Origin: Bacteroidales bacterium
Lineage (GTDB): Bacteria > Bacteroidota > Bacteroidia > Bacteroidales > WCHB1-69
Length of the DNA: 64,000 nt
Reading direction: 5' to 3'
NCBI GenBank assembly: GCA_017438945.1
Contig: JAFRUI010000013.1
Location: forward strand, 29,611 to 93,610
Below are positions 618-62,567 of this stretch, piece after piece (within the stretch, counting starts at the first letter, position 1; each line of letters begins with the position of its first letter). Under the pieces are notes generated by a model that worked only from the letters and a program-made list of their open reading frames with translations, searched no databases and had not been told where the DNA came from. Both the position numbers and the translations under genes were made by a program.

Positions 618-685
618 TTAATTCATAATTCATAATGCATAATGCATAATCATAATGCATGATCATAATCATAATTCATAATTAA
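618..685. repeat. (CATAAT)-word array of about 9 degenerate 6-7 nt units; left arm of an inverted pair flanking the four-helix-bundle gene
   Basis: ttaattcataattcataatgcataatgcataatcataatgcatgatcataatcataattcataattaa. Begins 1 nt after the comM stop. Confidence 0.9.
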
Positions 686-695
686 ATGGTAGGAT

Positions 696-1058
696 ATGAA
701 AAGTAATAAAGATAATCTGATTGTGGTGAAGAGTACCGAATTTGCTGTGGATGTTGTTCGATTTTGTGATTGGTTGCGGAAAGAGAGAAAGGAATGGGTG
801 ATTTCTGAGCAATTGTTGAAGAGCGGCACCAGTATTGGCGCTAATATCCGAGAGGGAATAAGAGGGCAAAGCAGTTCTGATTTTTATTCTAAATTCAACA
901 TCTCTCTTAAAGAAGCAAGCGAAACAGATTATTGGCTAGAATTGTTACACAAAAGCGGTTATTTGGATAATGCCCTATATGAAGAGTTGAAAAACAAATG
1001 TGAAGAATTGATCCGCATATTAACATCAATCGTTAAACACAAAGACCATCGCAACTGA
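696..1058 (+). CDS. Four-helix-bundle protein (23S rRNA intervening-sequence protein / Avd-like family)
   Basis: 120 aa with ATG at 696. Family-typical motifs: LLKSGTSIGANIREG, FYSKFNISLKEASETDYWLELL. Confidence 0.8.
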   Translation: MKSNKDNLIVVKSTEFAVDVVRFCDWLRKERKEWVISEQLLKSGTSIGANIREGIRGQSSSDFYSKFNISLKEASETDYWLELLHKSGYLDNALYEELKNKCEELIRILTSIVKHKDHRN

Positions 1059-1090
1059 TTATGCATTATGAATTATGCATTATGAATTAA
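1059..1090. repeat. (ATTATG)-word array; right arm, reverse complement of the 618-685 array
   Basis: ttatgcattatgaattatgcattatgaattaa. Its reverse complement starts TTAATTCATAAT, identical to the first 12 nt of the left arm. It overlaps the last codons and stop of the minus-strand LytTR gene. Confidence 0.85.
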
Positions 1091-2144
1091 CATGGTAACC
1101 GCCGTGGCGCTTGCTGCCGACGTATTTGACGAGCTTGCGTTTGCGGAGCTCGGAAAGGCAACGCTCGACCGTGCTCAGCGAAATCTCGGTCTGGGCGACG
1201 ATATCTGTGGTGTTGCAGCCCGGATTCGCCTGAACGCAGGATTGAACCATGTCGAGTTTCTGCTGCGGGGGGACGACGGGCTTCCGCTTGGACTTCGACC
1301 GGGGCTTTCTCTTCGGAGCTTGTTCCCCTGCTGTTTCGGCCTTGCATCGCTGAAGACCCTCGGCGACCTGGTCGGCAATCAGGCCACTGTTTTTGGGATC
1401 CAACGTGAACGTGAGCGGCTTCTTCGTCCACGGCATCTTTTTCAGGAACACCTCGCTGCCGTTGCACGACCAGATGTACTTATACGGAACCAAAACGGTG
1501 GGCGAAATGCGGACAAAGTCTTCTTCCCCAAACAGTTGCACAAGATGTTTCATGGAGCCGAGCCGTGTAAACCAACGGTCATGCACCGTATAGATGCGGG
1601 TGAAGTTCCCGTCCTGAACACAATAGTAGATGTCGTCTTTGGGAATCATTAAGAGGTTACTCTCATTGTCTATTACATCCACCATCTGAGTGTCGCGATA
1701 GACCACATGCACCTCCGTGTCCAAGGCCTTTCGCAGTTCCTGCCGTTCGCGGAACATAAACGGGAAGAAGTTGAATGCCAAGGTACGGGCAGCCACAACT
1801 CTCCCATGATGGGTAAACATTCTGAAGGCGCCAAATTGCTCTATAACCTCCGCATTACAATATTTCATCCATTTCCAGGCGATAACCATCTCAATCAATC
1901 CTGCCACAAAGGAAACGAAAACCACTACCACCCAATAGACAACCGGATGCTTTTTATGAAGTAGGGGGTAAAACAGGAAATAGTTGGCATATATGGTGGC
2001 CAACAACAACAGCCCCGCAAGCACTTCATTGGTGACACTGCCCGCCCATGGACGAAGATAGGAGTTGTTGACAAAGAAGTAGAGCAGCACGGCGCAGAAC
2101 AAGACGTTCAGCAAAACGATAACGATGGTTCTTCGGTGTTTCAT
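1080..2144 (-). CDS. Membrane-anchored LytTR-domain protein with a K/P-rich linker and a C-terminal winged-helix module (paralog of 60004-61110)
   Basis: Hydrophobic N-terminal helices (TIVIVLLNVLFCAVLLYFFV, VLAGLLLLATIYANYFLFYPLL, VVYWVVVVFVSFVAGLIEMVIAW). LytTR-like core (IPKDDIYYCVQDGNFTRIYT...FVRISPTVLVPYKYI). C-terminus is NPGCNTTDIVAQTEISLSTVERCLSELRKRKLVKYVGSKRHGGYHV. Start moved to ATG 2144 because a -7 box lies at 2205-2212, inside the longer track ORF. Confidence 0.6.
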   Translation of the reverse strand: MKHRRTIVIVLLNVLFCAVLLYFFVNNSYLRPWAGSVTNEVLAGLLLLATIYANYFLFYPLLHKKHPVVYWVVVVFVSFVAGLIEMVIAWKWMKYCNAEVIEQFGAFRMFTHHGRVVAARTLAFNFFPFMFRERQELRKALDTEVHVVYRDTQMVDVIDNESNLLMIPKDDIYYCVQDGNFTRIYTVHDRWFTRLGSMKHLVQLFGEEDFVRISPTVLVPYKYIWSCNGSEVFLKKMPWTKKPLTFTLDPKNSGLIADQVAEGLQRCKAETAGEQAPKRKPRSKSKRKPVVPPQQKLDMVQSCVQANPGCNTTDIVAQTEISLSTVERCLSELRKRKLVKYVGSKRHGGYHVNS

Positions 2145-2204
2145 AATCGGACATCCATATTTGTTTATTATTATGCTTCTTGTTTTCGGGTCTGAAAGTC
2201 GCTG

Positions 2205-2212
2205 CAAAGATA
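2205..2212 (-). promoter_or_regulatory. Bacteroidota -7 promoter box (TATCTTTG on the minus strand) for the LytTR gene
   Basis: Plus strand reads caaagata, which matches TAnnTTTG on the minus strand. It lies 61 nt upstream of ATG 2144. Confidence 0.55.
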
Positions 2213-2479: not shown

Positions 2480-5191
2480 ATGAAAAAGTTATTTATTATC
2501 CAATGGTTGATGTTGATTTCAATTCTAACTGTTGTGGCACAGGAGCCTGCTCTTCCCTACACGGCCACTTTTTCCACGTCGGAAGGATGGGTGCTGAACA
2601 ATGGTGATGCTCAGAATTACTGGATATTAGGTACCTCTGGCAGTAACAATGCACTCCTTGTGACCAACAACGGTGTCACCCCCACCTATTCCTACACCCG
2701 GAGTAATGTTGCTGCGGAAAAGACATTTGTGGTCGGGGATGCGGACAAGATTATTGTCTCTTTCGATCTGAAATGCGGCGGCAAGTACAACAAAGACTTT
2801 CTGAAGATGTTTTTGGCGCCTCCTTCCCAGATCTACGAGGGTGGAATCGCCTACTCGTGGGGTGTCAGTACGAATTCCCTCTATGCAGCCAACTTCAGCG
2901 ACCACTTCGACATGACCAACACGCCAAACTATCCTTACATTATCAATTTGACAGATGGCAAAACTATCCATTTGGATGTTCGGATGAACAATCCGATTGC
3001 CAATCCCGATACCAACTCAATTGCAAAACTGGTTTTTGGATGGGTTAATGACTACGGCAGCACTTACGATCACGGAATCCAGCCCGCACCAACAATCACC
3101 AATTTGCGTTTGAAAAGAGAGACCTGCACCCCTCTTACCGGATTGTCCGTCTCCAACATCCAGAGCCATTCAGTAGAGTTGTCGTGGAATATGCCTGAGG
3201 GTGGCACCTCTAATTATATTGTCCAATATGCTAAAGATGGCCAGAATTGGAACGATGCCTATATTACCACCGTGAACGTGCAGGACACGTCTGTGACGTT
3301 GACTGGATTGCAATCTATAACAAAATATTGGGTAAGGGTGGCACGCAATTGCGGTAGCGATACCAGTGTCTGGATCAAACAATCCTTCACTACACTTTGT
3401 GAATATATTGACACCCTTCCTTACATCTGCGACTTATCTCTTGTTTCAAGTACTATGCATCCGATTCCTGTTTGTTGGGAAAGAGGCCCAGGAAGCTGCT
3501 GCGACCCTGTTATTAGCTATGGTGCTATCAATCTTTGGATTCCCAACACCATCTCGATGCCGCATTTGAACAGACAGCTCATTGATATAAATACTGTGGA
3601 GGTTTCCTTTTCCGCCAGAAGTGAAACGAACAATGGCACCTTGATCATTGGTGTGATGACCGATGCCAGCGAAGACTCCACGTTTGTGGCTGTTGACACG
3701 CTAAGCCTGACTACATCATACGAGACTTATTTGGTTCCGATAAACGGTTACACTGGAGTTGGGGACAGAGTCTCTTTCAAATGTATCGACCACAGCGACA
3801 TATACGTGAAAGATGTGCTCCTTGACTATACGCTTTCGTGTCCAAGGCCATACGATTTGGAATCGTCCAGTCCTACGCATAACAGTATCAATTTGAGTTG
3901 GACGGGAACAGAATCATCCTGTAACCTATACTACCGAATCAAGGGGAACAATGCATTTACGGTTGTGCCGAACGTGTCGTTGAATAACAATGGCGTTTAC
4001 ACTTTGTCGGGACTGACCTCGGGTACAATTTACCAATGGTATGTGGCGGCACGATGCGATGACGGCACCGAAGCGGCAAGTCACGAACTCCACGATTTTT
4101 CTACTCTTTGCGATCCAATTGTTGAGCTTCCCGCGACTTGGGACTTTGAATATTATAACAATGAGACCATGTTGCCTGTATGTTGGAAAACATTATCCGC
4201 ATCTGCTACCATTAGGACGGACGAGTCTCACAGTGGTACACGGGTGCTGCGGCTGTACTACGTAGATAACGGGTCAAACATTGTCGTACTCCCCAAAGTG
4301 GAGGACAATCTCTATCCGATTGATAATTTGCAAATTAAGTTCTATGCCAAGAATATGGGAACTTATAGCGATTGGCATGTTCAGGTCATCGGTGGACTGA
4401 TTACGAATCCAGAGAACAGTTCCACCTTTATTCCTAACGACACAATTGATGTGATTGGTGCGGCAGGCGGAAGTTTCCAGGAATATACGCTTCGCGTGGC
4501 GGATTATCATTGGGCGGATGGCTATCCCGCCATAAGGTTTGTGAGAGTTAATGGCCCAATGTGGCTTCACATTGACGACCTGACATTGGAGGCCATCGAT
4601 TCCACATTACTCCCGGTGCGCCCCTCTGTGATGACTGTTGACGCAGACCCCATCGGACAGACAACCGCGACACTGAGCGCCACCATCAACAATCCGGACA
4701 ATCTGCTTGTCTCTGCAGCGGGTTTTGAGTGGCGTGATATTTCGGACAGCGCGTTTACGCAGGTCGATTGTTCCATCTCGAATAACGCTTTCATGACCGA
4801 ATTGACCAGCTTGACCGCAAACATGACTTACGCCTACAGGGCATTCATCACCTATTTTGGTATAACCGACTATAGTGAGGAAACGTTCTTTGCCACTTTG
4901 CCTAATAATAATGACTCGGTCCATGTTGACGACTATTTGCTCAGCTGCATCAAGCTATATCCGAATCCGGCAAATGAGTATATCGATGTACAATGTACAA
5001 TGAACGATGTACAATTGGAGGGCATTGAGGTGATAGATGTTTACGGCAAGGTAGTCCGTACCATTGTAGGTGCGAATAATCATTCGCCCCTACAGACCCG
5101 CATCAACATTTCAGGATTGGCCGGTGGCATCTATTTTGTGCGTTTGACCACCGATAAAGGCATTGTGATAAAGAAATTTGTGAAGAGATAA
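2480..5191 (+). CDS. T9SS-secreted surface protein (903 aa) with FN3 domains, beta-sandwich modules and a type A C-terminal sorting domain
   Basis: Signal peptide MKKLFIIQWLMLISILTVVAQ. FN3-like segments (CTPLTGLSVSNIQSHSVELSWN..., CPRPYDLESSSPTHNSINLSWT). GVMTD...STFVAVDT modules. C-terminus is YPNPANEYIDV...GIYFVRLTTDKGIVIKKFVKR. The track start at 2465 is a TTG. Confidence 0.85.
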   Translation: MKKLFIIQWLMLISILTVVAQEPALPYTATFSTSEGWVLNNGDAQNYWILGTSGSNNALLVTNNGVTPTYSYTRSNVAAEKTFVVGDADKIIVSFDLKCGGKYNKDFLKMFLAPPSQIYEGGIAYSWGVSTNSLYAANFSDHFDMTNTPNYPYIINLTDGKTIHLDVRMNNPIANPDTNSIAKLVFGWVNDYGSTYDHGIQPAPTITNLRLKRETCTPLTGLSVSNIQSHSVELSWNMPEGGTSNYIVQYAKDGQNWNDAYITTVNVQDTSVTLTGLQSITKYWVRVARNCGSDTSVWIKQSFTTLCEYIDTLPYICDLSLVSSTMHPIPVCWERGPGSCCDPVISYGAINLWIPNTISMPHLNRQLIDINTVEVSFSARSETNNGTLIIGVMTDASEDSTFVAVDTLSLTTSYETYLVPINGYTGVGDRVSFKCIDHSDIYVKDVLLDYTLSCPRPYDLESSSPTHNSINLSWTGTESSCNLYYRIKGNNAFTVVPNVSLNNNGVYTLSGLTSGTIYQWYVAARCDDGTEAASHELHDFSTLCDPIVELPATWDFEYYNNETMLPVCWKTLSASATIRTDESHSGTRVLRLYYVDNGSNIVVLPKVEDNLYPIDNLQIKFYAKNMGTYSDWHVQVIGGLITNPENSSTFIPNDTIDVIGAAGGSFQEYTLRVADYHWADGYPAIRFVRVNGPMWLHIDDLTLEAIDSTLLPVRPSVMTVDADPIGQTTATLSATINNPDNLLVSAAGFEWRDISDSAFTQVDCSISNNAFMTELTSLTANMTYAYRAFITYFGITDYSEETFFATLPNNNDSVHVDDYLLSCIKLYPNPANEYIDVQCTMNDVQLEGIEVIDVYGKVVRTIVGANNHSPLQTRINISGLAGGIYFVRLTTDKGIVIKKFVKR

Positions 5192-10209: not shown

Positions 10210-10217
10210 TATCTTTG
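10210..10217 (+). promoter_or_regulatory. -7 promoter box (TATCTTTG) immediately after the stop of the 1662-aa gene
   Basis: aaTAGTATCTTTGcac. The stop TAG is at 10207-10209, and the box lies 67 nt upstream of ATG 10284. Confidence 0.5.
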
Positions 10218-10283
10218 CACCCAAAACTTTGAACTTTGAACTTTGAAACTTGAATTCTGAAACTTAGAAAAAAACATATTATT

Positions 10284-21437: not shown

Positions 21438-21470
21438 TAAGCTGATAAATTTGTAGGTTTCCCCATTTTG

Positions 21471-21504
21471 TAGGGACGCGATGAATCGCGCCCCTATATT
21501 TTTT
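21471..21504 (+). terminator. Intrinsic terminator hairpin plus T-run after the 3717-aa gene (GTAG-hairpin family)
   Basis: TAGGGACGCGATgaATCGCGCCCCTA forms a ~10-12 bp stem with 1 mismatch, followed by tattttttacg. It lies 34 nt after the stop. Confidence 0.75.
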
Positions 21505-21541
21505 ACGCACCTCCACCACAGATAACCATAATCATTCAACA

Positions 21542-21606
21542 GCTTCAATAACCCATAACCATTAACCCTCAATGTCAATGTCAATAACCTATAACCACTA
21601 ACCATT
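21542..21606 (+). repeat. GCTTCAATAACCCATAACC... heptamer-word element, copy E1, upstream of murG
   Basis: gcttcaataacccataaccattaaccctcaatgtcaatgtcaataacctataaccactaaccatt. The first 20 nt equal the reverse complement of 30318-30337. Confidence 0.9.
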
Positions 21607-21614
21607 AAAAAATG

Positions 21615-22785: not shown

Positions 22786-23277
22786 ATGAACGGAGATCCA
22801 AGATTATACCAACTGTTGGACGAACTGCATATCCCCTACGAATATCTGGAGCATCCGCCCGCCCCGACCATCGAGATTGCCAAGCAATACTGGGCTGGGC
22901 ACGACGCCAAACACTGCAAGAACCTCTTCTTCCGCAACCACAAGGGCAACCAGCACTATCTGGTCTGCCTCGACTGCGACCAGGACATGAACATCCACGA
23001 CATCGAGAAACAGCTGCATCAGGGCAAGCTGAGCTTCGCCTCGGAACCGCGATTGATGAAATATTTGGGCGTGACTCCTGGCTCCGTGACCCCTTTCGGA
23101 CTCATCAACGACACGGAGCACCATGTGCATGTGTTCCTTGACCGTCAGCTGCAGCAGGCGGAGCGCGTGAGTTTCCACCCGTGCATCAACACCGCCTCGC
23201 TCATGGTGGCGCGCGCGGATTTTGAGCGTTTCCTGCAGTATATGGGGAATCCGTACGAGTGGATCGATTTATATTAG
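22786..23277 (+). CDS. YbaK/ProX-type aminoacyl-tRNA editing (prolyl-tRNA synthetase-associated) domain protein
   Basis: HCKNLFFRN.KG.QHYLV, LGVTPGSVTPFGLIND and VSFHPC.NTASL motifs. The track start at 22765 is a TTG; the first ATG is at 22786. Confidence 0.65.
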   Translation: MNGDPRLYQLLDELHIPYEYLEHPPAPTIEIAKQYWAGHDAKHCKNLFFRNHKGNQHYLVCLDCDQDMNIHDIEKQLHQGKLSFASEPRLMKYLGVTPGSVTPFGLINDTEHHVHVFLDRQLQQAERVSFHPCINTASLMVARADFERFLQYMGNPYEWIDLY

Positions 23278-23337
23278 CTTTTGGCTGTTGGCTGTTAGCT
23301 ATTGGCACTTCGCTAATTCTTTGATTGAAAAATTGTT

Positions 23338-30301: not shown

Positions 30302-30337
30302 AATGGTTATGGGTTATTGGTTATGGGTTATTGAAGC
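30302..30337 (-). repeat. GGTTATG-word element, copy E2, 5 nt upstream of the ABC-F start
   Basis: aatggttatgggttattggttatgggttattgaagc. It has 36 nt with 1 mismatch to 34929-34964 in direct orientation. Its reverse complement starts with the same 20 nt as 21542-21561. Confidence 0.9.
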
Positions 30338-32078: not shown

Positions 32079-32171
32079 AATGGTTTTGGTTTATTATTCT
32101 ACTTACTTTTATTTATCCAATTATCATATTATCTAATCATCGTTTCATCGTTTCATCGTCTCATCCTCCAA
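32079..32171. repeat. AT-rich spacer ending in a TCATCGT-word array, at the place where the murD 5' two-thirds should be
   Basis: ...aatcatcgtttcatcgtttcatcgtctcatcctcc (32136-32170). The same word family occurs at 39446-39486. Confidence 0.8.
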
Positions 32172-34928: not shown

Positions 34929-35022
34929 AATGGTTATGGGTTATAGGTTATGGGTTATTGAAGCGGGGTTATAGGTTAAGAGGTTATAGAGGTTAGGAGG
35001 TTAGAAGGTTATGGTTTATTCC
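34929..35022 (-). repeat. GGTTATG/GGTTAKR-word element, copy E3 plus extension, 10 nt upstream of the murE start
   Basis: aatggttatgggttataggttatgggttattgaagc, followed by ggggttataggttaagaggttatagaggttaggaggttagaaggttatggtttatt. Confidence 0.9.
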
Positions 35023-39150: not shown

Positions 39151-39158
39151 CAAAAATA
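39151..39158 (-). promoter_or_regulatory. -7 promoter box (TATTTTTG on the minus strand) for the mraZ/dcw operon
   Basis: Plus strand reads caaaaata. It lies 29 nt upstream of ATG 39122. Confidence 0.55.
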
Positions 39159-39415
39159 TAATTTTTCCATAACATATTTCCATAAATCGCATCTTATTTA
39201 ACTCATGTTGTTAAAAAAACACCTTATCTTACTGATTTTCAATATGGAAAATATTGGAAAAAAGTTATCAACAGAAATCAACAGCAATATCAAAGAATTG
39301 ATACACAGTAATTTAAATCAATCTGTTAAGAAAACTGTTATCTTGTTTATTATCAGCTAGATAAAAATCTAATTGGAATTTTTAGGAATTTACATCTTGC
39401 GAACGGAAGAAATAT

Positions 39416-39440: not shown

Positions 39441-39493
39441 TCCTCTCATCGTGTCATCGTGCCATCGTATCATCGTGCCGTCCTCAAATTTTG

Positions 39494-40727: not shown

Positions 40728-40766
40728 TCTTCAGCTATTAACCAGCCAAAAGCCAACAGCCAAAAG

Positions 40767-41459
40767 CTATTTCCCTTTCTTCGCGGCAATCGACAGGAAG
40801 AGTCCGAGGATGACGCTGCAGAAGGCGGCGAAGAGGACTTGGAGATCCTGAGGCAGACAGAAGGTGAGGGTGTGCGCGGGAATCCAGAACAACGGGATGG
40901 TCTTCTTGAAGACAAAGCCCCACTGCACGCCCCAGTCCATCTCGCAAATATGGCGTTTGACGGCCACCGGCTTGAACAAGGCCGAAAAGGCGCCGCCGTG
41001 CTCGTTGATGTGCATGTCGGAAATTTTGTGGACGGTCATGAAGACGGGGGCGAAAGCGGTGTTCATCATCACGCTGACGCAGAAAGCACCGAGGAGTTTC
41101 AACCACGACATCGGCTCCGCCATTGCCGCCGAGACACCGCTGAAGGCGGCATAACGCTCCATGAAGGCCGGCACGCCGAGGCGGAAAACGTTCATCGCCA
41201 AGGCTATCCACATTCCGAGAAGCCCCCAGACCACGAATTTCGGGGCAAGGCCGAAGCCCTTATGGTAATACTGCCCGGTTTTCACGCGACTGCCAAGCAT
41301 CTCCCCGAAGGTGGCCAAAATACCGAATTTCAGGAAAGCCATCCATAACGGGAAACGCTGGTTTGCCGCACAATAGGCATCATAAACGCTGTCAAACAAG
41401 AAAAATGGAAGCAGGCACAACACGATGACCGCTATTACGATAATGTCTGATTTTTTCAT
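40767..41459 (-). CDS. Integral membrane protein of unknown function (about 6 predicted TM helices)
   Basis: 230 aa, hydrophobic throughout. I recognise no family motif. It has its own -7 box at 41490. Confidence 0.55.
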   Translation of the reverse strand: MKKSDIIVIAVIVLCLLPFFLFDSVYDAYCAANQRFPLWMAFLKFGILATFGEMLGSRVKTGQYYHKGFGLAPKFVVWGLLGMWIALAMNVFRLGVPAFMERYAAFSGVSAAMAEPMSWLKLLGAFCVSVMMNTAFAPVFMTVHKISDMHINEHGGAFSALFKPVAVKRHICEMDWGVQWGFVFKKTIPLFWIPAHTLTFCLPQDLQVLFAAFCSVILGLFLSIAAKKGK

Positions 41460-49844: not shown

Positions 49845-49874
49845 TGTAGAGACGCGCCATGGCGCGTCTCTACA
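49845..49874. terminator. Perfect 30-nt palindrome between convergent genes; bidirectional terminator candidate (GTAG-family)
   Basis: TGTAGAGACGCGCCATGGCGCGTCTCTACA. The stop codon of the minus-strand 1770-aa gene (49870-49872) lies inside the right arm. Confidence 0.7.
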
Positions 49875-52800: not shown

Positions 52801-55182
52801 GAGAATCTGCGACTGGGTGCCGGCAGCGAGGAACACCAGACCGTTCCAGCTCAGCGGAAGCTCGTTCTGGCAGCAGACGCTGTCAACATGCACCGTGTCC
52901 GAATAGTTCACCGTCAGCTCTATCCGGCGAGTGTACGGGCAGCCGTCGGAGTTGTTGATGACGCGCTCGTGAATCCCCGATTCCGTATAGACCGTGTCGA
53001 ACCACGCATAGCGGTTGCAGACCGTAATCTCGGAGACCACCGCGGAGGTGTCCGACACGTCCACGTGGACCGTGGTGGTGCTATCGCACCCGTGGATGTT
53101 GGGGACGGTGACGCTCTGCGTGCCCGCCTCTGTGAATGTGAAACCCCGCACGGTCACCGGCAGGCTCTGAGGGCAGACCAGCGTGTCGAGCTGCACCGTG
53201 TCCGCGTAGTGGACCGTCACGTACGCCGTCACAATGCTGTCGCAGCCGTAACGGTTCTCCAGCGTCTGCGCATACACTCCGCTCTCAGGGTATACTTCCC
53301 CGTTCCAGACGAACGCCCCGCACACGACGGTGTCGAAAGCGGCGACGCTAGACGGGTTTACTGTCAGGGTCAAAGTGACAACGGAGTCGCAACCGAAACG
53401 GTTGGTGAAAGCTTTCGTATAAACACCTGATTGCGTGTAAGTTTCACCAGCCCAAGAGTAAAAATCGCATGCCGTCTGGGCGATATTGACAGAATCTGAA
53501 ACATTCACTATGAGATGGACGGTAACAATACTATCGCAACCGAACTGATTCGCAAATGTTCTTGTATAAATTCCTGATTGTGTATATGTTATTCCTTCCC
53601 AAATTAAAGAATCGCATACCGTCTGGGAAACGCTGGTCGTCGAAACGGGGTTGATATGGAGAGTCATCACCACTACACTGTCATATCCCTGGTAAGATGG
53701 GATGGTCACGTCATGTGTTCCGGCCTCTGCAAACATAATCCCATTCCAAACGAGGGGCAGGGCATTTTCGCAAACCGTGCTGTCCACTCTAACCGTGTCC
53801 AAATGCAAAATGGTGATATTTAATTGGATAACACTATCGCAACCGTACTGGTTCTGGTATTCAAACGTATAAGTCCCTGATTCTGTGAAAAGAGTATCGT
53901 CCCAAACCAAACCGTCGTAGGCACTGGTATCTATGGTGAAATATTGTGAGTAATGAATCGTGATGTCCAAAAACACGACACTGTCGCAGCCGTTGCCGTT
54001 GGTGAGATGTTGTGTATAAGTTCCTGAATAGTTGTATGTTGTACCATTCAGCGTATAGGAATCGCAGGAGGATTCGGTCAGATAGGCAGTGTCGGGTTCA
54101 TGGAGGGTGAGATGGAGGATCACCGTGCTGTCACAACCATTGGAAGAGAGGAAATGTTGCTCGTAATCGCCTTCTTCATAGAGGGTTATACCATTCCAAA
54201 GGTAAGTCTGGCAGGCCTCTTCGTAAATCTCGTTGGTGATAGAAGGCAGGACGGTCAGGTAGAGGGTCACGACAGCGGAGCAACCGTCGGCGGTGACGGT
54301 GCGCGTGCGGGTGATGGTGCCCGGCGTGGCGGTTTCCTCCGCGCTGACAGTGAACCCGTTGGCCTCGTACGGCTCACCCTGACAAACCTCATCGTAAATC
54401 TCCTGCGGCATGTTCTCGGCCACGAAGATGGTCCGTTCGGCTGTCGCACTGCATCCGCTTTCGTTGGTGGCGGTCACGGTGTAGGTGGTGGTCTGCGGCG
54501 GCGACGGGTTGATGTACGGCTCTGTACTGCCCGTGCTCCACTGGTAGGTCAGAGAAGTGTCATACTCAACCGGAGGAATTACGAAACTGCGAATGGCTCG
54601 TACTTTATGGTAGGTTCCACGATTGTATTGTGCGGGAATGAAAAATGACACAGCCCAAGCTTCGGTATTACTTACAAGACTACTGCTCCAATAATCACCT
54701 TCAGGGAGAGTGCCTCCCGCATTCGTCATTTTCTCATCAATAAAGGGAAAACTTGCCGTTAGCCGGAGCAACTGTCCGATCGCAGGAAGATACCATCCAT
54801 TGTCAAAATCCACCTCGGTGGCGGCGACAGGAACTGGATATGCCAGCGTTGCTTGGAAATTCCGGATAAGTTGAGTGTTGGAATAGCCAGCGGTATCATC
54901 TGTCATAAGTTTGTATAGCTCCATATTCCGTACATAATCATTTGGATTTGGATACGAAAAATACGGAAGCCCTGTGAACACAGGACCGTTTTGAGACCAT
55001 CTGATACTTTCCGACGCATCATCCAAAGCCACCACCCAACCCCCGCTTCCATCAGGGTGAAGATAAAAAATGATTCCCTGACTCCCGTCCGGTGCAGTAT
55101 ATAGGTCTCCTATCTGGTAGCTTTGTCCGAACAAATCTGCTACAAGAAAGAAAAGTGCCATATATACCACAATTTTCTTCAT
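49870..55182 (-). CDS. T9SS type B cargo protein (1770 aa): N-terminal DUF1566-like domain, ~30 two-Cys ~49-aa repeats, type B sorting domain
   Basis: Signal peptide MKKIVVYMALFFLVADLFGQ. DFDNGWYLPAIGQLLRL resembles the DUF1566 W.LP...EL core. Repeats follow C..Y.W.G.TYT.SG.YT.T.TN..GCDS.VTLHLT. C-terminus is LPNAITPSKSDGLNDVFSLP...ISIFNRWGEQVFYSTDKNFQWDG...GSVTVL. Confidence 0.85.
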   Translation of the reverse strand: MKKIVVYMALFFLVADLFGQSYQIGDLYTAPDGSQGIIFYLHPDGSGGWVVALDDASESIRWSQNGPVFTGLPYFSYPNPNDYVRNMELYKLMTDDTAGYSNTQLIRNFQATLAYPVPVAATEVDFDNGWYLPAIGQLLRLTASFPFIDEKMTNAGGTLPEGDYWSSSLVSNTEAWAVSFFIPAQYNRGTYHKVRAIRSFVIPPVEYDTSLTYQWSTGSTEPYINPSPPQTTTYTVTATNESGCSATAERTIFVAENMPQEIYDEVCQGEPYEANGFTVSAEETATPGTITRTRTVTADGCSAVVTLYLTVLPSITNEIYEEACQTYLWNGITLYEEGDYEQHFLSSNGCDSTVILHLTLHEPDTAYLTESSCDSYTLNGTTYNYSGTYTQHLTNGNGCDSVVFLDITIHYSQYFTIDTSAYDGLVWDDTLFTESGTYTFEYQNQYGCDSVIQLNITILHLDTVRVDSTVCENALPLVWNGIMFAEAGTHDVTIPSYQGYDSVVVMTLHINPVSTTSVSQTVCDSLIWEGITYTQSGIYTRTFANQFGCDSIVTVHLIVNVSDSVNIAQTACDFYSWAGETYTQSGVYTKAFTNRFGCDSVVTLTLTVNPSSVAAFDTVVCGAFVWNGEVYPESGVYAQTLENRYGCDSIVTAYVTVHYADTVQLDTLVCPQSLPVTVRGFTFTEAGTQSVTVPNIHGCDSTTTVHVDVSDTSAVVSEITVCNRYAWFDTVYTESGIHERVINNSDGCPYTRRIELTVNYSDTVHVDSVCCQNELPLSWNGLVFLAAGTQSQILQNRYGCDSVVVMTLEVTEVSYTTFDTTVCGVFEWEGSIYTQSGVYMKQLPGASGCDSMVLAHVTVVAPPLTVFDTVVCAGDLPVEWRGYLFGHADTLYFTGVSAMGCDSTAEYRLRTVEPDTVEQSVTACDVFEWAGDEYEEGGDITKVFSNIHGCDSVVTVHLTVNHAEAAEVSATSCDSYVWNGVTYTGSGDYTQTLTNAEGCDSVVTLHLTVHYSETEEVTETSCDSFVWEGETYTESGDYTRTYTTASGCDSTVTLHLTLSHAETVEISEMSCDEYLWDGETYSEPGDYTRTYTNVAGCDSVVTLHLTLNHADTSEFAETSCDEYVWEGETYTEPGDYTRTYTNVAGCDSVVTLHLTLNHADTAEFAETSCEEYVWDGETYSEPGDYTRTYTNVSGCDSVVTLHLTLNHADTTEIAETSCEEYVWEGETYTESGNYTRTYTNAAGCDSLVTLHLTLHHADTTEIAETSCDEYAWEGETYTGSGDYTRTYTNAAGCDSVVTLHLTLHHSETAEMTETSCEEYVWEGETYTGSGDYTRTFTNASGCDSVVTLHLAIAQNAAVQLDSSVCAGALPLLWNGVTFSSAGTQSVTHQTVSGCDSTVTMTLHVNSTYQLSEGRTVCQDELPYVWNGVTFSGPGTQSVTYQTVSGCDSTVTMTLSVSSTYQQMQSRSVCADELPYLWNGVAFIGPDTQTVTLQTVSGCDSVVTMQLAVLGLDSTELYETACDTFPWGGATYTESGDYTRTLTNMAGCDSVVTLHLTVYPAEVAEIAEAACEEYVWNGETYTESGDYTRSFTSMVGCDSTVTLHLTVIDTALEIISLTEDFCEGMSAELSVVTSMTDYEWSTGEEMPNITVTQPGVYSVTAMQGGCRATARYTVEGCDFQLWLPNAITPSKSDGLNDVFSLPQRVQSMIADFEISIFNRWGEQVFYSTDKNFQWDGSFKGKTFVNTVYTYIIRYTLAGGKPYRVTGSVTVL
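51115..52465 (-). repeat. Tandem 147-bp (49-aa) coding repeat, at least 9 consecutive units, several nearly identical
   Basis: The landmark gcagcgtcacca(c) recurs at 51138, 51285, 51432, 51579, 51726, 51873 and 52020, with variants at 52167 and 52314. Spacing is exactly 147 nt. Outer boundaries are approximate. Confidence 0.9.
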
Positions 55183-57558: not shown

Positions 57559-57580
57559 TGCAGATTGAACTTTTTTTCGG

Positions 57581-57588
57581 CAAAATTA
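57581..57588 (-). promoter_or_regulatory. -7 promoter box (TAATTTTG on the minus strand) for the 787-aa/1770-aa operon
   Basis: Plus strand reads caaaatta. It lies 23 nt upstream of ATG 57558. Confidence 0.55.
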
Positions 57589-57629
57589 CATTTTTTTGTG
57601 AATTGTGAATTGTGATTGGTGAATTGGGG

Positions 57630-57657
57630 GTAGGGGCGAATAATTATTCGCCCCTAC
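57630..57657 (-). terminator. Perfect 28-nt palindromic hairpin after the LRR gene (GTAG-family, GGGGCGAATAAT type)
   Basis: GTAGGGGCGAATAATTATTCGCCCCTAC, 17 nt downstream of the stop at 57674. Confidence 0.7.
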
Positions 57658-57673
57658 AACATCCCGCAATCCG

Positions 57674-59272
57674 TTATTTCCTGACGATTTTCTGACGGTA
57701 TTCCTTCCCGTCACCGTTCGTCACGCGCAACACGTACACGCCCGCGGGAAGATTGGAGACATTGACGCGAATCGGGTTGCCCGTCACATTCTCCGTGTGG
57801 ACCAATTTACCGTAAATATCGAGAACCTCAACGGTCTCAACCTCAATTTGTACATTGTTCATTGTACATTGTACATTGACGTAATCGCTCGCCGGATTGG
57901 GATACACCTTGAAATCCGCCGGCGCGTATTCCTCCAAACCGACACACTCCTCATAGACGAGATTGCTGTAGTTGCTCCAACCAGGAGCGGACTGATACTC
58001 CGCTGTTTTCCCGCACGGCACTCGAACGTAAATAGTGCCCTGCTTGCTGAAAGTTGGATAACCGTCTCCTCCATTAATGGCGGGAGGTGTTTCACAGTAA
58101 ATATCCAACACCCTTAACCCTTCTCCAGCACTTGTAAAGAATGCTTTTTTGCCGATAGAAGTTACGGAAGCGGGAATGGCTATTTGCGTCAGCATAGGTG
58201 TGGCAGAAAAAGCATAGTTGTCAATGACGGCCAGCTGTTGAGGCAGTACGACATAATTCAAATTGGGACATCCTTCAAAACAGTATTCCGGAATAGTGTC
58301 AACCTGTGGCGGTATGACGACTGAAGAAATTGCTGTTTTTTCAAAGCAATAATGACCTAACCGCACAATATTGTCCGAAAGGATGAGTGTCTCCAAATGA
58401 TTGAGACCCATGAAGCAGAAGTCTGCCAATTCCAAAGGATTAGCTCCGGCCTGGAATTCTATGTAACGACAAGAATAGTCTTCATTTTCATACGAAAACC
58501 CGTCTCCCAGTGCAATTTTCTGCAAACTTCTCGGGAAAACCAAAGTATCAATGTATCTCGCCGAAAACGCTAACTGTTCTATTTCTTGTAACCCCTCATG
58601 AAAAGTAATCTTGGTCAGCGGACATCCCTGGAAGGCTCCGTAGGGTAACACGGTAACACCTGCTGGAATCTCCACTTCGCTGAGAGAAGAGTACGAAAAA
58701 GCAAAGTCCCCGATATAAGTCAAGACCGTGGGCAAATCAATGGATTCCAGCGGGGTGGACGAAAATGCGCCATAATTGATTCGGGTTACATTGGGCGACA
58801 TCATAATCTGATGCAGTGTGGAACCGTAAAAAGCACCAGTGTCAATGGTCTCCACCGAAGCAGGCAACACCACGGTGTGCATGCCCTTCTGATAGTAGAA
58901 AGCCTCTTTATCAATGGATTTCACCGAATAGGTCTGCCCTTGATAGGTCACCGAGGAGGGTATTGTTATCAGCGAGTCGTAATCATACACGGGATAAAGG
59001 AACCCGGGCTGCCCTATTTCAACAGAGCTTTGGGGTAGCGGAAGGGTGTGAAAGACCGAGTCATGACAACGGGTCACGGCCACGGTATAAGGCGCGGTGG
59101 CCGAAGTGATACGGTAATAAAGGGTGTCGCCATCTGCATTGGCGATCATGAAATCGTAGTCGGGATAAGGGTTCTGGGCGGAGAGGCTGCCCGTGAACAG
59201 GGAAAGCAGCAGAGCCAATGCGGTACCGAAATATCCGCGGATTCTCTTTCTTTGTGTTATTTTCTTTTTCAT
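57674..59272 (-). CDS. BspA-type leucine-rich-repeat protein with a T9SS type A sorting domain
   Basis: 532 aa with a signal peptide. Repeated I...AF..C..L..I.(I/L)P.SV..I...AF units. C-terminus is YPNPASDYVNVQCTMNNVQ...GVYVLRVTNGDGKEYRQKIVRK. Confidence 0.85.
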   Translation of the reverse strand: MKKKITQRKRIRGYFGTALALLLSLFTGSLSAQNPYPDYDFMIANADGDTLYYRITSATAPYTVAVTRCHDSVFHTLPLPQSSVEIGQPGFLYPVYDYDSLITIPSSVTYQGQTYSVKSIDKEAFYYQKGMHTVVLPASVETIDTGAFYGSTLHQIMMSPNVTRINYGAFSSTPLESIDLPTVLTYIGDFAFSYSSLSEVEIPAGVTVLPYGAFQGCPLTKITFHEGLQEIEQLAFSARYIDTLVFPRSLQKIALGDGFSYENEDYSCRYIEFQAGANPLELADFCFMGLNHLETLILSDNIVRLGHYCFEKTAISSVVIPPQVDTIPEYCFEGCPNLNYVVLPQQLAVIDNYAFSATPMLTQIAIPASVTSIGKKAFFTSAGEGLRVLDIYCETPPAINGGDGYPTFSKQGTIYVRVPCGKTAEYQSAPGWSNYSNLVYEECVGLEEYAPADFKVYPNPASDYVNVQCTMNNVQIEVETVEVLDIYGKLVHTENVTGNPIRVNVSNLPAGVYVLRVTNGDGKEYRQKIVRK

Positions 59273-59306
59273 TGTTGTGGAATTTAAGGGTTATAAATTT
59301 ATTTGG

Positions 59307-59314
59307 CAAAATTA
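59307..59314 (-). promoter_or_regulatory. -7 promoter box (TAATTTTG on the minus strand) for the LRR gene
   Basis: Plus strand reads caaaatta. It lies 35 nt upstream of ATG 59272. The context aaaaaaatgtaattttgcc is nearly identical to the box at 57581. Confidence 0.55.
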
Positions 59315-59333
59315 CATTTTTTTACGGTTTGCG

Positions 59334-59367
59334 GTTGTGGGGGCGAATAATTATTCGCCCCCACAAC
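59334..59367 (-). terminator. Perfect 34-nt palindromic hairpin (GTTGTGGGGGCGAATAATTATTCGCCCCCACAAC)
   Basis: Same element as 57630-57657 but with a compensatory A>G / T>C pair in the stem. Confidence 0.65.
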
Positions 59368-59380
59368 ATCCCGCAATCCG

Positions 59381-59670
59381 TTATTTCCTGACGATTTTCT
59401 GACGGTATTCCTTCCCGTCCCCGTCCGTCACGCGCAACACGTACACGCCCGCCGGAACGTGCCGCACGTTAATGGTGGCGGTGCCGACTTGTTGGGGCGT
59501 ATTGAATACGCCCCATAAAATACCAAGACAGGTCCGCTTTCCTTGCTACCCGTATTTGACAGAAAGACTCTGTTTCCCCATGCCTGAGTTTTTTCATCCT
59601 TTTGACATCCACTTGCTGTGAATAACATTATCCAAACGGAGAATGACAGCCATAGTAATTTTTTTCTCAT
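59381..59670 (-). pseudogene. Decayed T9SS cargo gene: a lipoprotein-type signal peptide joined out of frame to a ~50-codon sorting-domain tail
   Basis: The ORF 59670->59428 begins MRKKLLWLSFSVWIMLFTASGCQ. A different frame, open over 59545->59384, ends ...INVRHVPAGVYVLRVTDGDGKEYRQKIVRK with stop at 59381-59383. That matches the tail of the neighbouring LRR protein. No body domain lies in between. Confidence 0.6.
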
Positions 59671-59714
59671 AATTTTTACTTTTTTTGAATTTGTTATATA
59701 TGATATTGCGTCAA

Positions 59715-59837: not shown

Positions 59838-59976
59838 CATTGACGAATGATATATATAACAAATTGGAAAACAACAATATACAAACCTTGTCTCCTGTTT
59901 TGCGGAATCTTATTTGCAAATAATCAAAATTTCGTCATATTCTTTCTTCAATCATGCCATTGAAACCTTAAAATCG

Positions 59977-59984
59977 TATTTTTG
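59977..59984 (+). promoter_or_regulatory. -7 promoter box (TATTTTTG) for the second LytTR paralog
   Basis: aaaatcgTATTTTTGcgctc, 20 nt upstream of ATG 60004. It lies inside the longer track ORF that starts at 59914. Confidence 0.55.
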
Positions 59985-60003
59985 CGCTCCTAAATTTCGC
60001 AAT

Positions 60004-61110
60004 ATGAGCAATAAATTGTCAACTTTCGGAAAAATCTGCATCCATGTCGGATTCTGTGTTATCATTGTCTTCTTCTTTGGTAGGAACACTGTCCTGCGTT
60101 TACCCTCCTGTGGCGCGATGTATAAAGAATACGTAACAGGACTATTGCCTTTGGTCTTGTTCTACGGCAATATGTTTCTCCTTTTCCCGCTTTTGTTTCT
60201 GAAAGAAAGACTGTTTGCGTACATTGGTTCTGTCACCCTATGCCTACTTGCCGCCACCTGTGCGGAACTCGCATGGGTTTATCCACAAATCGCGCCTTCT
60301 TTGGTAAGCTTATTTGGAGCGGAATCCAGTAAGTATCTTATTGTCTATTACTTCCCTCTGGTTTTCTTACGAAATACAGGTTTCACCCTGTTCTCCTTCG
60401 CTTTTTGTGACATTCGCCATCAAACTACTCTAAAGGAGAAATATGAATCCCGACTGAAAGAAATCGCGGGCGAGGTGGACATCCAAAAGACAGACAATAC
60501 ACCAGTCTTTGCCAATATAAATGACATTCTCTATTGCCAACAGGGTAAAAATTTCTCTTGGGTATTTATGGCTGGAGGTAAATTCTATATCCGATACGGT
60601 TCCCTGAAGACATTGAAAAAACTGCTTGGGGAGAATCTTTTGATTGATGTGTCGAAAGGGTTGTTTGTTATGCTGGATAAAATCCACTCCTACGATGAGG
60701 CATCCATCACCATAAGGGATTCAGTTCAAGACAAACTGCACTCGTTTGAATGGGGGACTGGCTATTATGAAAATGCACGACGGAAGTTGTCTGTCAGCCC
60801 TTCACAAGAAGCTAGGGAAACCTTTTTGAAAAACTCCTCGGAAAAGGCAACAAACGCGCCCCTGACCCTTGAAAGCAAAAAACATCTGAACGCCGTTTTC
60901 AGATTGCATCCGAATTTCCGCCCTGTCTATTCTTACATTCGGCAGCATCCAGGTTGTAAGGCAAACGACATCTCCTCAAAACACACAATCCCTACAGGCA
61001 GCCTCAACCGCATCCTCAAACAACTCAAAAACGAGGGTCTCATCGAGTACACCGGCAGCAAGAAGACCGGCGGGTACCGCGTGCGACAACAGCCATCATC
61101 GGAAAGCTAA
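60004..61110 (+). CDS. Membrane-anchored LytTR-domain protein with a C-terminal winged-helix module (paralog of 1080-2144)
   Basis: Same architecture as the first copy: TM helices (ICIHVGFCVIIVFFF, LLPLVLFYGNMFLLFPLLF, IGSVTLCLLAATCAELAWV), a LytTR-like core (ININDILYCQQGKNFSWVFM...), and the C-terminus HPGCKANDISSKHTIPTGSLNRILKQLKNEGLIEYTGSKKTGGYRV. Confidence 0.6.
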   Translation: MSNKLSTFGKICIHVGFCVIIVFFFGRNTVLRLPSCGAMYKEYVTGLLPLVLFYGNMFLLFPLLFLKERLFAYIGSVTLCLLAATCAELAWVYPQIAPSLVSLFGAESSKYLIVYYFPLVFLRNTGFTLFSFAFCDIRHQTTLKEKYESRLKEIAGEVDIQKTDNTPVFANINDILYCQQGKNFSWVFMAGGKFYIRYGSLKTLKKLLGENLLIDVSKGLFVMLDKIHSYDEASITIRDSVQDKLHSFEWGTGYYENARRKLSVSPSQEARETFLKNSSEKATNAPLTLESKKHLNAVFRLHPNFRPVYSYIRQHPGCKANDISSKHTIPTGSLNRILKQLKNEGLIEYTGSKKTGGYRVRQQPSSES

Positions 61111-61126
61111 CAGCCAAAAAAAATAC

Positions 61127-61134
61127 TATCTTTG
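61127..61134 (+). promoter_or_regulatory. -7 promoter box (TATCTTTG) for the hemerythrin/LuxR pair
   Basis: aaaatacTATCTTTGccg, 18 nt upstream of ATG 61152. Confidence 0.5.
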
Positions 61135-61151
61135 CCGAAAAATATTTGACA

Positions 61152-61871
61152 ATGAGTACTATCATCTCCAATCTTCCGCAACTGTCGCCGAAAATGAAAA
61201 TGGCCGATGCTATCAACCAGTACCACAGCCTGTTGACTGTTCTGCCGCGACTCGGCATCCCCCTCGGCTTCGGGGAGAAAAGTATCGAACAGCTCTGCTC
61301 CGAACACCACGTCTCGCTCCCCCTGTTCACCCTTATCGGCCGCATATATTGCCAAGAAGACTATTACCCCACCGCCAACGAGCTGCAACAATGCCCCATG
61401 ACCGACATCCTGCAATATCTTGTCTCCTCGCACAAGGACTACCTGGAGAACAAACTGCCCCATATTGAGCAACATCTCCACACTCAGTTGGCTTCCATGG
61501 ACAAGAAATACATCACTCTCATCTCCAACTTCTACGCCGAATTCCGCAAAGAGATGGAAAAACATTTCCGTTACGAGGAGGAGGTGATTTTCCCCTACCT
61601 GCGGCAGATTCTCTCCGAACAGGAGGCCACCGAGTCCGCCACCTACCAGAAGAACACCTTCCACCAACAGCACGATGACATCGAGGACACCCTCAACGAC
61701 CTCTCCAACCTGCTGCTCAAGTACATCCCCGCTGAAATCTCCCCCGTGGAGCGCGTCGATATGCTGTTAGACGTTTATGCCCTCTCCAACGACATCGCCA
61801 GACATGCCATGATGGAAAACCGCATCTTAGTTCCTTATATCCAACTGTTAGAATCCAAACGCCATGACTAA
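61152..61871 (+). CDS. Hemerythrin-like (HHE cation-binding) domain protein, RIC/ScdA-like architecture
   Basis: H...E motifs in a helical C-terminal half (HKDYLENKLPHIEQHL, HFRYEEEVIFPYL, QQHDDIEDTL, ARHAMMENRILVPY). The N-terminal ~65 aa resemble ScdA_N/DUF1858 but lack Cys. The track start at 61146 is a TTG. Confidence 0.5.
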   Translation: MSTIISNLPQLSPKMKMADAINQYHSLLTVLPRLGIPLGFGEKSIEQLCSEHHVSLPLFTLIGRIYCQEDYYPTANELQQCPMTDILQYLVSSHKDYLENKLPHIEQHLHTQLASMDKKYITLISNFYAEFRKEMEKHFRYEEEVIFPYLRQILSEQEATESATYQKNTFHQQHDDIEDTLNDLSNLLLKYIPAEISPVERVDMLLDVYALSNDIARHAMMENRILVPYIQLLESKRHD

Positions 61872-62454
61872 GATCGCCATCGCCGAACCCTCCATCCTGC
61901 TGCGCACAGGACTGGAACAGTTGCTGCACGAGCTGCCGGACGCGGAAATCATCTTCTCCACCGACAACCTGAGCTCCCTCTATGCGAGAATCAACGCCCT
62001 GCACCCTGACATTCTGATTGTCAACCCGTTGCTGTACGACTACGCCAAACGCGCCACCATCCGCGCCGAGTTTGACAACTTGCCGAACCTGCGTCTCATC
62101 GGATTGGTCACCTCCTACGTCGAATCGCAGCACCAGCGGCAGTTCGCCGGCGTCATCGAACTCAACGACGACTTCCAACGCATCAAATCGACCCTCAACC
62201 AGGTGACCAACTCCCTCCAATCCGACGGCGACGAACCCGACACCGACCCCCTCTCCGACCGCGAGAAAGAGGTGCTCGTCTGCCTCTCCAAAGGACTGAA
62301 AAACAACGAAATCGCCGACACCCTCAACATCTCCGTCCACACCGTCATTACCCACCGCAAGAACATCGTCCGCAAAACCGGCATCAAATCCGTCGCAGCC
62401 CTCACCGTCTATGCCATCCTGAACAACCTCATCGAAGAAAAAGACATTATCTAA
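61864..62454 (+). CDS. LuxR/GerE-family HTH regulator with an atypical receiver-like N-domain
   Basis: C-terminal LSDREKEVLVCLSKGLKNNEIADTLNISVHTVITHRKNIVRKTGIKS. The N-domain lacks the acidic pair (AEPS), and Asn replaces the expected phospho-acceptor Asp (PDILIVNPLL). It overlaps the upstream gene by 8 nt. Confidence 0.7.
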   Translation: MTKIAIAEPSILLRTGLEQLLHELPDAEIIFSTDNLSSLYARINALHPDILIVNPLLYDYAKRATIRAEFDNLPNLRLIGLVTSYVESQHQRQFAGVIELNDDFQRIKSTLNQVTNSLQSDGDEPDTDPLSDREKEVLVCLSKGLKNNEIADTLNISVHTVITHRKNIVRKTGIKSVAALTVYAILNNLIEEKDII

Positions 62455-62567
62455 TTCAGAATTAAGAATGCAGAATTAAGAATTTTTTCATGGACATTAG
62501 CCATTGACATAAATACATTCCTGATTCTTATTCATCATTCTTAATTCTTAATTTTTAATTCTTAATT
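62455..62567. repeat. Inverted AGAATTA / TAATTCT heptamer-word arrays flanking a 38-nt core
   Basis: Left arm is ttcagaattaagaatgcagaattaagaatt (62455-62484). Right arm is gattcttattcatcattcttaattcttaatttttaattcttaatt (62523-62567). Confidence 0.85.

Follow-up and report, generated by a model that had tools for sequence, protein, structure and literature searches.

Intergenic heptamer arrays in an uncultured rumen Bacteroidales lineage may combine free simple sequence repeats with the arms of a four-helix-bundle gene cassette

What are the short tandem arrays of degenerate heptamers that lie in the intergenic spacers of a 64-kb stretch of the Bacteroidales contig JAFRUI010000013.1 (hereafter the window), and do they all belong to one kind of element? 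Heptanucleotide repeats have been known since 1990, as short tandemly repeated repetitive sequences (STRR), and are the commonest long simple sequence repeat (SSR) unit in bacteria; to our knowledge, they have no accepted function or mechanism. We favour, with a probability only slightly better than even (about 0.55), a joint explanation in two layers, in which free SSRs of this clade lie alongside the arms of a cassette built around a gene for a four-helix-bundle (4HB) protein and resembling an intervening sequence (IVS) of 23S rRNA.

The window was described by a greedy gene model of 35 genes (95% coding). Arrays were detected with Tandem Repeats Finder (TRF) and a lag-self-match scan, both of which recovered head-to-tail 7-nt units in at least three copies, and the null expectation was obtained from 200 dinucleotide-preserving shuffles of the spacers (n = 26; 3746 nt, 12-nt pads included). 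Period-7 arrays numbered 14 in the spacers, whereas the shuffles averaged 0.29 and never exceeded 2, and the excess of short tandem arrays postulated in a first-pass annotation of this DNA is thus borne out. Periods 4–6 and 9–12 were at or near chance, and period 8, with two arrays, was weakly enriched. Seven of the eight strongest period-7 arrays of the window fell within its 5% of non-coding DNA (lag-self-match scan). The first-pass annotation correctly placed true arrays in spacers but overstated their spread, as 12 of the 26 spacers carry one rather than nearly every spacer. TRF and self-matching confirmed most of the sites that it listed; several amount to one or two words only, as at 26068–26085 and 61111–61120, and those at 22757–85, 43863–97 and 45806–29 hold 2–3 units and score at threshold. 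The arrays of the window are 3–10 units long and degenerate, and their words are AT-rich and not of the type that forms G-quadruplexes. About seven word families were distinguished in these 64 kb, the only part of the genome seen, with no single dominant word. The claim that families are common to distant spacers is also supported, although sharing is modest (8 site pairs matching at 6/7 or better versus 2.9 expected, P about 0.02). An Rfam gathering search of the window returned tRNA-Ser only, and the arrays are covered by no known RNA family. The main free arrays are as follows.

10225..10270, plus strand: AACTTTG (TTTGAAC) array in the 5' leader of a gene encoding 3717 aa, 3' of the promoter box at 10210–10220 (TRF, scan).
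21520..21608, plus strand: degenerate ATAACC[N] array ending 7 nt before the TAnnTTTG box of murG; the period-7 call within it covers 21584–21608, and a run of three TCAATG hexamers lies at 21569–21585.
23277..23306, plus strand: four copies of TTGGCTG, abutting the stop codon of a YbaK-like gene, 37 nt before hydE (TRF, scan).
30305..30331, minus strand: four copies of CATAACC in gene sense, G-free, ending 8 nt before the start codon of the ABC-F gene (TRF).
32137..32165, minus strand: period-8 array, TCATCGTT on the plus strand and AACGATGA in gene sense, just 3' of the mraY stop codon (TRF, scan).
34932..35019, minus strand: CATAACC/TATAACC/CTCCTAA arrays in gene sense, G-free, which fill the ftsI–murE spacer up to 13 nt from the murE ATG (TRF).
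39446..39479, plus strand: four copies of TCATCGTG, period 8, 15 nt upstream of the hflX TAnnTTTG box at 39494.
40744..40767, no strand assigned: 3.4 copies of AGCCAAA, the reverse complement of the TTGGCTG family, between the convergent hflX and an open reading frame (ORF) of 230 aa (TRF).

Relatives were graded by the identity of their MurE protein to that of the window, and the genome scan included metagenome-assembled genomes (MAGs) of uncultured rumen Bacteroidales. The window grouped with these MAGs (MurE identity from 90% down to 66%), and other Bacteroidota were at 52–58%. Period-7 density per 100 kb was 18.8 in the window, 10.8 in relatives at 83–90% identity, 5.4 in relatives at 66–74% and 2.2 in other Bacteroidota, and the density of other periods was flat across these groups. 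Within the clade, 53 of 64 arrays fell in the 7% of non-coding DNA, and the longest had 22 copies. The arrays are a property of this rumen Bacteroidales clade, which probably has a high birth rate of 7-nt tandem duplications. The exact MurE protein was also found on contigs of four independent assemblies (L001–L004) that are 99.98% identical to the window, and in these the arrays were identical, with constant copy number. An assembly artefact is ruled out on these grounds, as are phase-variable contingency SSRs. The latter, as known from Haemophilus (PMC12721329), are likewise short tandem repeats in the 5' regions of genes, but they differ in that our arrays showed no copy-number variation in the four near-identical strains, their units are degenerate, and what lies downstream is a housekeeping gene (murE, murG, abcF), not a surface or restriction-modification locus. 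The sole length difference among these strains was in a 54-bp coding repeat (window 24595–24801, minus strand, 3.8 copies, 96% identity) inside a 208-aa coiled-coil ORF, where L001 is shorter by 108 nt (2 units).

Between species the picture is one of turnover. In the ftsI–murE spacer, an AACC-type motif is visible by eye in 9 of 9 relatives at 83–90% MurE identity, and 7 of the 9 have AACC-type arrays, G-free on the sense strand, by the array definition used here; the word drifts among CATAACC, TATAAAC, TTTAACC and CTAAACC. In some relatives at 70–74%, this spacer measures 30–50 nt and holds 2–3 units only. The array before the ABC-F gene (30305..30331) is present in L005 and L008 and absent from other close relatives. 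In the spacer between mraY and the gene for a 185-aa protein (X185), the window word TCATCGTT has its counterpart in TAAACC in L009 and L010, TTGACCA plus TAACTGC in L033, AGATTAG in L013 and L014, and AACCTTT in L016, and there is no array in most other relatives. Spacer length follows array length at orthologous sites. Gain, loss and copy-number change, the differences that the first-pass annotation had in mind for orthologous spacers, were seen between species, together with word replacement. The same words were also found at non-orthologous sites elsewhere: L011 has seven copies of CATAATG 3' of an sbcC-like gene, and L171 has words of the TCATCGT family.

The context of the free arrays is not random with respect to transcription. 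Among 38 co-directional intergenic arrays read in gene sense, G was below C in 31 and above C in 5 (p = 1e-5). Arrays ending within 17 nt of a start codon were almost all G-free, and the G-rich ones adjoined the upstream stop codon. The AACC family changes strand with gene direction despite a near-steady fall of cumulative GC skew across the window, and the strand bias therefore follows transcription, not replication. We compared the leaders of 22 genes with a start-proximal array with those of 253 other genes having at least 40 nt of non-coding sequence upstream: the median minimum free energy (MFE) from –40 to +15 was –0.5 kcal/mol with an array versus –5.0 kcal/mol without (p = 1.5e-7), and the G fraction from –40 to –1 was 4.7% versus 15.5%. 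The earlier suggestion of unstructured, G-poor leaders thus holds for start-proximal arrays. Such G-free arrays could be used as natural structure-free leaders in Bacteroidales expression design. Elsewhere in the window, three arrays lie 7–15 nt 5' of promoter –7 boxes (21520–21608, 39446–79 and 57596–626), and one lies in a 5' untranslated region (10225–70). The array at 39446–79 is outside hflX, upstream of the promoter box, and the true hflX ATG is at 39537. No single positional role fits all the arrays, which are found upstream of promoters, in 5' untranslated regions, in leaders and at convergent gene ends.

The view that these arrays fit no known repeat class did not stand: they match intergenic heptanucleotide SSRs of the STRR and long SSR (LSSR) type. 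Such repeats are known in several lineages and unexplained, with polymerase slippage as the usual suggestion (PMC4679880, PMC4692102). They include the STRR of cyanobacteria (Mazel 1990, as cited in PMC4692102), the intergenic heptamers GGGAATC of Xanthomonas and GGGGA(C/T)T of Nostoc (PMC4692102), and TAACTGA in Beggiatoaceae, cyanobacteria and five Bacteroidetes (PMC4679880); for the LSSR class, slippage of the polymerase has been named as the source of the heptamer excess seen in many bacteria (Mrazek 2007, as cited in PMC4679880 and PMC4692102). The arrays described here share with them the 7-nt tandem unit, the strong intergenic bias, the lineage-specific distribution, the frequent position a few nucleotides from a start codon (TAACTGA), the inverted pairs seen in some cases (Xanthomonas) and the occupation of the same spacers in related species with varying length and sequence. 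They differ in that the window has at least seven word families with none dominant, whereas STRR1–3, TAACTGA and GGGAATC are dominant words, and in being AT-rich, not G-quadruplex-forming, short (3–10 units) and degenerate. This uncultured rumen Bacteroidales lineage was previously unreported in this respect, and the avoidance of G on the sense strand near start codons is added here. The feature is real, and most of it extends a known class of repeats to a new lineage, here with several word families.

One family of words does not fit this description. At the 5' end of the window, directly 3' of yifB, a small gene is bracketed by heptamers in opposite orientation, and similar words recur at two sites near the other end.

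618..685, plus strand: upstream arm/array of the 4HB cassette, units AATTCAT/AATGCAT (= CATAAT[G/T]), about 9.7 copies (TRF).
696..1058, plus strand: gene for a 120-aa 4HB protein, PF05635 (23S_rRNA_IVP) / TIGR02436.
1056..1090, plus strand: downstream arm, ATTATGC/ATTATGA, beginning inside the 4HB stop codon.
57596..57626, minus strand: four copies of AATTCAC in gene sense, a solo word of the 4HB-arm type, 8 nt upstream of the promoter box at 57581–57588.
62452..62574, no strand assigned: inverted pair of the arm type lacking an ORF, at a convergent junction (scan arrays 62453–84 and 62524–74).

Profile matches of the 4HB protein were strong (Pfam E = 1.6e-27; TIGR02436 8e-31), and its nearest solved structures by profile, PDB 2rld and 2gsc, both contain five chains as deposited. 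PADLOC matched the protein to no defence system. The period-7 calls at the cassette are 619–683 and 1058–1089 (TRF/scan). The inverted-repeat arm proper is 618–652, which fits the family unit AAT[T/G]C[A/G]N and is 94% complementary over 35 nt to 1056–1090. In the predicted RNA fold, the downstream arm pairs with 618–655 as a closing stem, in both the MFE and the centroid structures. The downstream arm also overlaps the end of a convergent LytTR gene (1080–2207, minus strand), whose last three codons and stop codon consist of arm sequence. The product of this gene and that of 59914–61110 (plus strand) are paralogous proteins with a membrane region, LytTR and a winged helix-turn-helix domain. 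The solo array at 57596–57626 is probably a cassette-type arm, judging from its word.

A metagenome scan with a family alignment of the 4HB protein yielded 80 loci, with GC contents from 32% to 61% and varied neighbouring genes; 71 of these have at least 100 nt on both flanks. A period-7 array was found upstream in 63 of the 71, downstream in 60 and on both sides in 54, and the downstream word is the reverse complement of the upstream word of the same locus. The best flank-to-flank inverted match reached at least 14 in 56 of 71 loci, as against 0 of 71 in the shuffled control and 14 of 71 in the mismatched-locus control (Fisher p = 1e-12). Median arm lengths were 31 and 32 nt (interquartile range 27–33), the unit consensus was A-A-T-[T/G]-C-[A/G]-N, and about 32 nt correspond to about 4.5 units with five AAT cores. 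About 18 nt separate the upstream arm from the ATG, and about 5 nt separate the stop codon from the downstream arm, with unit orientation fixed (upstream 114 forward versus 10 reverse; downstream 12 versus 84). Homologs at 79%, 63% and 58% identity occupy the same position after yifB (L085–L088) with the same design, and these orthologs show a compensatory change in both arms, from CATAAT[G/T]/ATTATG[C/A] to CACAAT[G/T]/ATTGTG[C/A]. In L172, the cassette fills both spacers between parE-like and parC-like genes, and the 4HB protein of this contig carries the NCBI name Ruminococcaceae/Oscillospiraceae. Of 17 homologs on viral contigs, 13 are likewise flanked by arrays; one of them has nine copies of ATAACCT, a word of the same family as the CATAACC arrays of the window. 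A search of 81 dcw loci for further 4HB genes found only that of L047, with an upstream GGAATGT array.

Some loci depart from the simple design. L090, L106, L155 and L161 have an extra direct arm copy in the downstream flank, and L109 and L112 have arm-type arrays 400–700 nt upstream, one gene further out; these extra copies hint at tandem or two-gene cassettes. Many 4HB homologs lie on contigs of only 0.5–1.5 kb, and the flanking heptamer arms probably break short-read assemblies.

The closest known counterpart of this arrangement is the 23S rRNA IVS of Coxiella, Leptospira and others (PMC4990558). The Coxiella IVS encodes an S23p protein of the PF05635 family, has a 28-bp terminal stem that is cut by RNase III, and carries 2–4 tandem GACAGAT heptamers upstream of the S23p ORF, their number varying between strains (PMC4990558). 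Both elements thus have a PF05635 ORF of about 120 aa within terminal inverted repeats (a stem of about 28–35 bp) and tandem heptamers directly 5' of the ORF, and the cassette, like the IVS, would sit inside a host transcription unit without disrupting it. The 4HB cassette differs in that it lies in mRNA spacers (after yifB, between the parE-like and parC-like genes of L172, and in many other places) and not in 23S rRNA, and in that its arms are themselves made of heptamers of the unit AAT[T/G]C[A/G]N. Excision by RNase III is known for the IVS, whereas the present cassette is known from its sequence. It does not lie in a 23S rRNA helix: Rfam detected no rRNA in the window, and the cassette is between yifB and the LytTR gene. 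By its architecture, the cassette would appear to work like an IVS while not being a 23S IVS. The generality of such a cassette appears to be undescribed; the Coxiella IVS paper was all that came up when we searched the literature for the arm sequences or for a connection of PF05635/S23p with heptamers.

In the two-layer explanation, most arrays are SSRs of the STRR/LSSR type, presumably born by slipped-strand replication; they appear, change word and vanish on the time scale that separates species and remain stable between near-identical strains. Context would then act as a filter, such that only versions G-free in the mRNA sense persist near a start codon. These arrays may be of benefit by leaving the initiation region nearly free of structure, which would suit the Shine–Dalgarno-independent initiation of Bacteroidota. 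The AAT[T/G]C[A/G]N words (618–685 with 1056–1090; 62452–62574; probably 57596–57626) are not free SSRs in this reading. About 4.5 units (32 nt), in inverted orientation, make up the arms on either side of the PF05635 gene in a conserved cassette, which has the architecture of an S23p-encoding 23S rRNA intervening sequence but lies in mRNA spacers. By prediction, the arms pair in a stem of about 32 bp that would close off the ORF, and we infer that it most likely serves for RNase III-type processing or for insulation, which would let the cassette sit in host operons.

Several observations weigh against this explanation. For the first layer, the statistics on G-free and weakly structured leaders include many orthologous, non-independent spacers, and a general constraint on leaders may be all that lies behind both tendencies. 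Other arrays lie 5' of promoters or at the 3' ends of convergent genes, positions that rule out a leader role, and the recurrence of CATAATG in L011 and of TCATCGT in L171 is not predicted by simple local slippage. For the second, the mismatches of 58 arm pairs comprised 36 G.U and 53 A.C. With no G.U excess, an RNA stem is not told apart from an inverted repeat that acts at the DNA level or is recognized by a protein, and intrastrand template switching could also homogenize the arms without selection. Finally, an AACC-type array flanks the 4HB gene in L189, so that the two layers may not be separate.

This last observation, like the lack of an RNA-wobble signature in the arms, would suit a single system in which the arrays are binding sites of a heptamer-reading protein, with the pentameric 4HB protein as the most attractive candidate. 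In that case, the cassette would carry its own recognition or autoregulatory sites in its arms, and the arrays scattered elsewhere would mark a footprint or regulon. The reader could alternatively be a single-strand binder of the cold-shock or S1 type, and CspB has been reported to bind heptamer repeats (as cited in PMC4679880). The 4HB genes are almost always flanked by heptamers, whatever the word, and in an orientation fixed relative to the gene; an arm of about 32 nt has five AAT cores, to be set beside the five chains of 2rld and 2gsc, and beyond 300 nt from 4HB genes array density remains at 15.9 per 100 kb. However, five cores and five subunits may agree by chance, and the case for 4HB binding is a candidate reading of sequence. 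The window has one 4HB gene for about 14 arrays and about seven word families, which one reader is unlikely to serve, and unrelated words replace one another at a single orthologous spacer. We consider protein binding rather improbable as a general explanation.

A related reading, that PF05635 (S23p/Avd-like) pentamers and heptamer repeats form one system in which the protein recognizes about five heptamer cores, is a conjecture from sequence patterns to which we give still less weight. If it were true, the heptamer excess of the cyanobacterial STRR, of Xanthomonas (GGGAATC), of Beggiatoaceae (TAACTGA) and of these Bacteroidales would be accounted for as the regulon or scattered footprint of the 4HB family and its IVS-like cassette. 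We know of no role established for the 23S-IVS protein family (S23p/PF05635) since the early 1990s. Two old puzzles, heptanucleotide repeats and the role of this family, meet at these loci, and the inverted arms of fixed length offer a testable handle on both.

Could all the arrays, cassette arms included, be neutral by-products of heptamer-biased slippage and template switching, tolerated only where nothing is encoded? The rapid gain, loss and replacement of words at orthologous spacers, the heterogeneous positions (promoter-upstream, leader, operon-internal and convergent ends) and the slippage already invoked for the heptamer excess of many bacteria all suit this idea, as do arrays in frame within genes. 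Two such arrays in the window had been overlooked by the first-pass annotation.

4986..5015, plus strand: in-frame coding array, four copies of TGTACAA, inside the C-terminal sorting domain of a type IX secretion system (T9SS) substrate (TRF).
57848..57878, minus strand: in-frame coding array of TGTACAA in gene sense, in a second, paralogous T9SS C-terminal domain (TRF).

They encode VQCTMN(D/N)VQ in paralogous Por_Secre_tail domains, and the reading frame is kept because three units make 21 nt, or seven residues. Heptamer arrays also occur in frame in L065, a low-GC Bacteroidota MAG: one of the AATTTCG/TTTAGAA type inside murG (16282–16305; ..SLEFRISNFQIRE..) and another apparently inside murC (16851–16883; ..ISNFEFRISN..), so that arrays are able to arise inside essential coding genes. 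Neutrality does not readily account for the tight arm length (interquartile range 27–33 nt) and fixed orientation of the cassette, for inverted arms that outlast complete word turnover across contexts, GC contents and at least one Firmicutes-named lineage, for a strand bias tied to transcription direction, or for the AACC-type leader kept before murE in most close relatives. We therefore regard it as unlikely for the whole set of arrays.

The remaining proposals of the first-pass annotation concerned rearrangement and mobility. The dcw genes lie in the order mraZ-rsmH-ftsL-ftsI-murE-mraY-X185-ftsW, followed by the ABC-F gene (window 30351–39170). murD is missing from its usual place, where X185 (no Pfam match) is found instead, and murG (21643–22749) is about 9 kb from the cluster, on the opposite strand. 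In every relative with a MurE identity of 66% or more, X185 separates mraY from ftsW. This junction is thus ancestral to the clade while the arrays there vary or are absent, so that the arrays are not the scar of a murD deletion, and the ftsI–murE array is at an ordinary, conserved operon junction. The idea that arrays mark every rearrangement junction was accordingly not upheld; recombination or filler scars found no support, and the rearrangement-scar idea was rejected.

The notion of MITE-like termini (miniature inverted-repeat transposable elements) fared better, in that it describes the AAT[T/G]C-type words, which are inverted 4HB cassette arms, and the pair without an ORF at 62452–62574. 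In this pair, AATTCAG/AATTAAG/AATGCAG face their complements in arms of 32 nt, 88% complementary and 53 nt apart (hairpin z = –4.1), and the whole resembles a MITE of 123 bp with 32-nt terminal inverted repeats. We looked up the corresponding site in relatives to see whether the pair stands in for a 4HB gene. In L171 (69% relative), it holds an unrelated TCATCGT-type array and a hairpin, with no 4HB gene, and in L170 (79% relative) synteny is lost there. A second ORF-less pair was found in L016. Like MITEs and repetitive extragenic palindromic (REP) elements, such pairs are short and intergenic, with terminal inverted repeats and hairpin potential, and 4HB cassettes are found in many unrelated gene neighbourhoods. 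Decayed MITE or transposon termini, or rearrangement scars, are nevertheless very unlikely to explain the arrays in general. The arms are tandem heptamers, not unique terminal inverted repeats; most arrays are single, direct and partnerless; and the yifB–4HB position is stably inherited. We saw no multicopy identical elements, no second copy of a whole element in the 64 kb or in related loci, and no associated transposase or REP-associated tyrosine transposase partner.

Other repeats of the window were noted in passing. The spacers 57559–57700 and 59273–59410 are paralogous, with the promoter box, a hairpin and the 3' end of the upstream T9SS domain in common, and they differ exactly at the array (four copies of GTGAATT in the former versus two of GCGGTTT in the latter); the second is followed by about 330 nt of apparently decayed coding sequence at 59400–59700. 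A family of GC-rich palindromic hairpins, GTAGRGRCG-loop-CGYCYCTAC (for example GTAGGGGCGAATAATTATTCGCCCCTAC), lies after stop codons and looks like REP or terminator elements (21470–21499, 28085–28112, 28304–28331, 35051–35075, 49846–49873, 57630–57657, 59337–59364 and 59495–59515). The copy at 28085 overlaps the predicted lpxD start codon, and a further copy at 5066–5093 lies in coding sequence, in a T9SS C-terminal domain, where it is translated as VGANNHSPLQ. The ORF 49870–55182 (minus strand, 1770 aa) contains, at 50711–52338, a 147-bp unit repeated in tandem 8.2 times and a 156-bp unit repeated 2.5 times (about 80% identity); this region is GC-rich (0.62) relative to the window mean.

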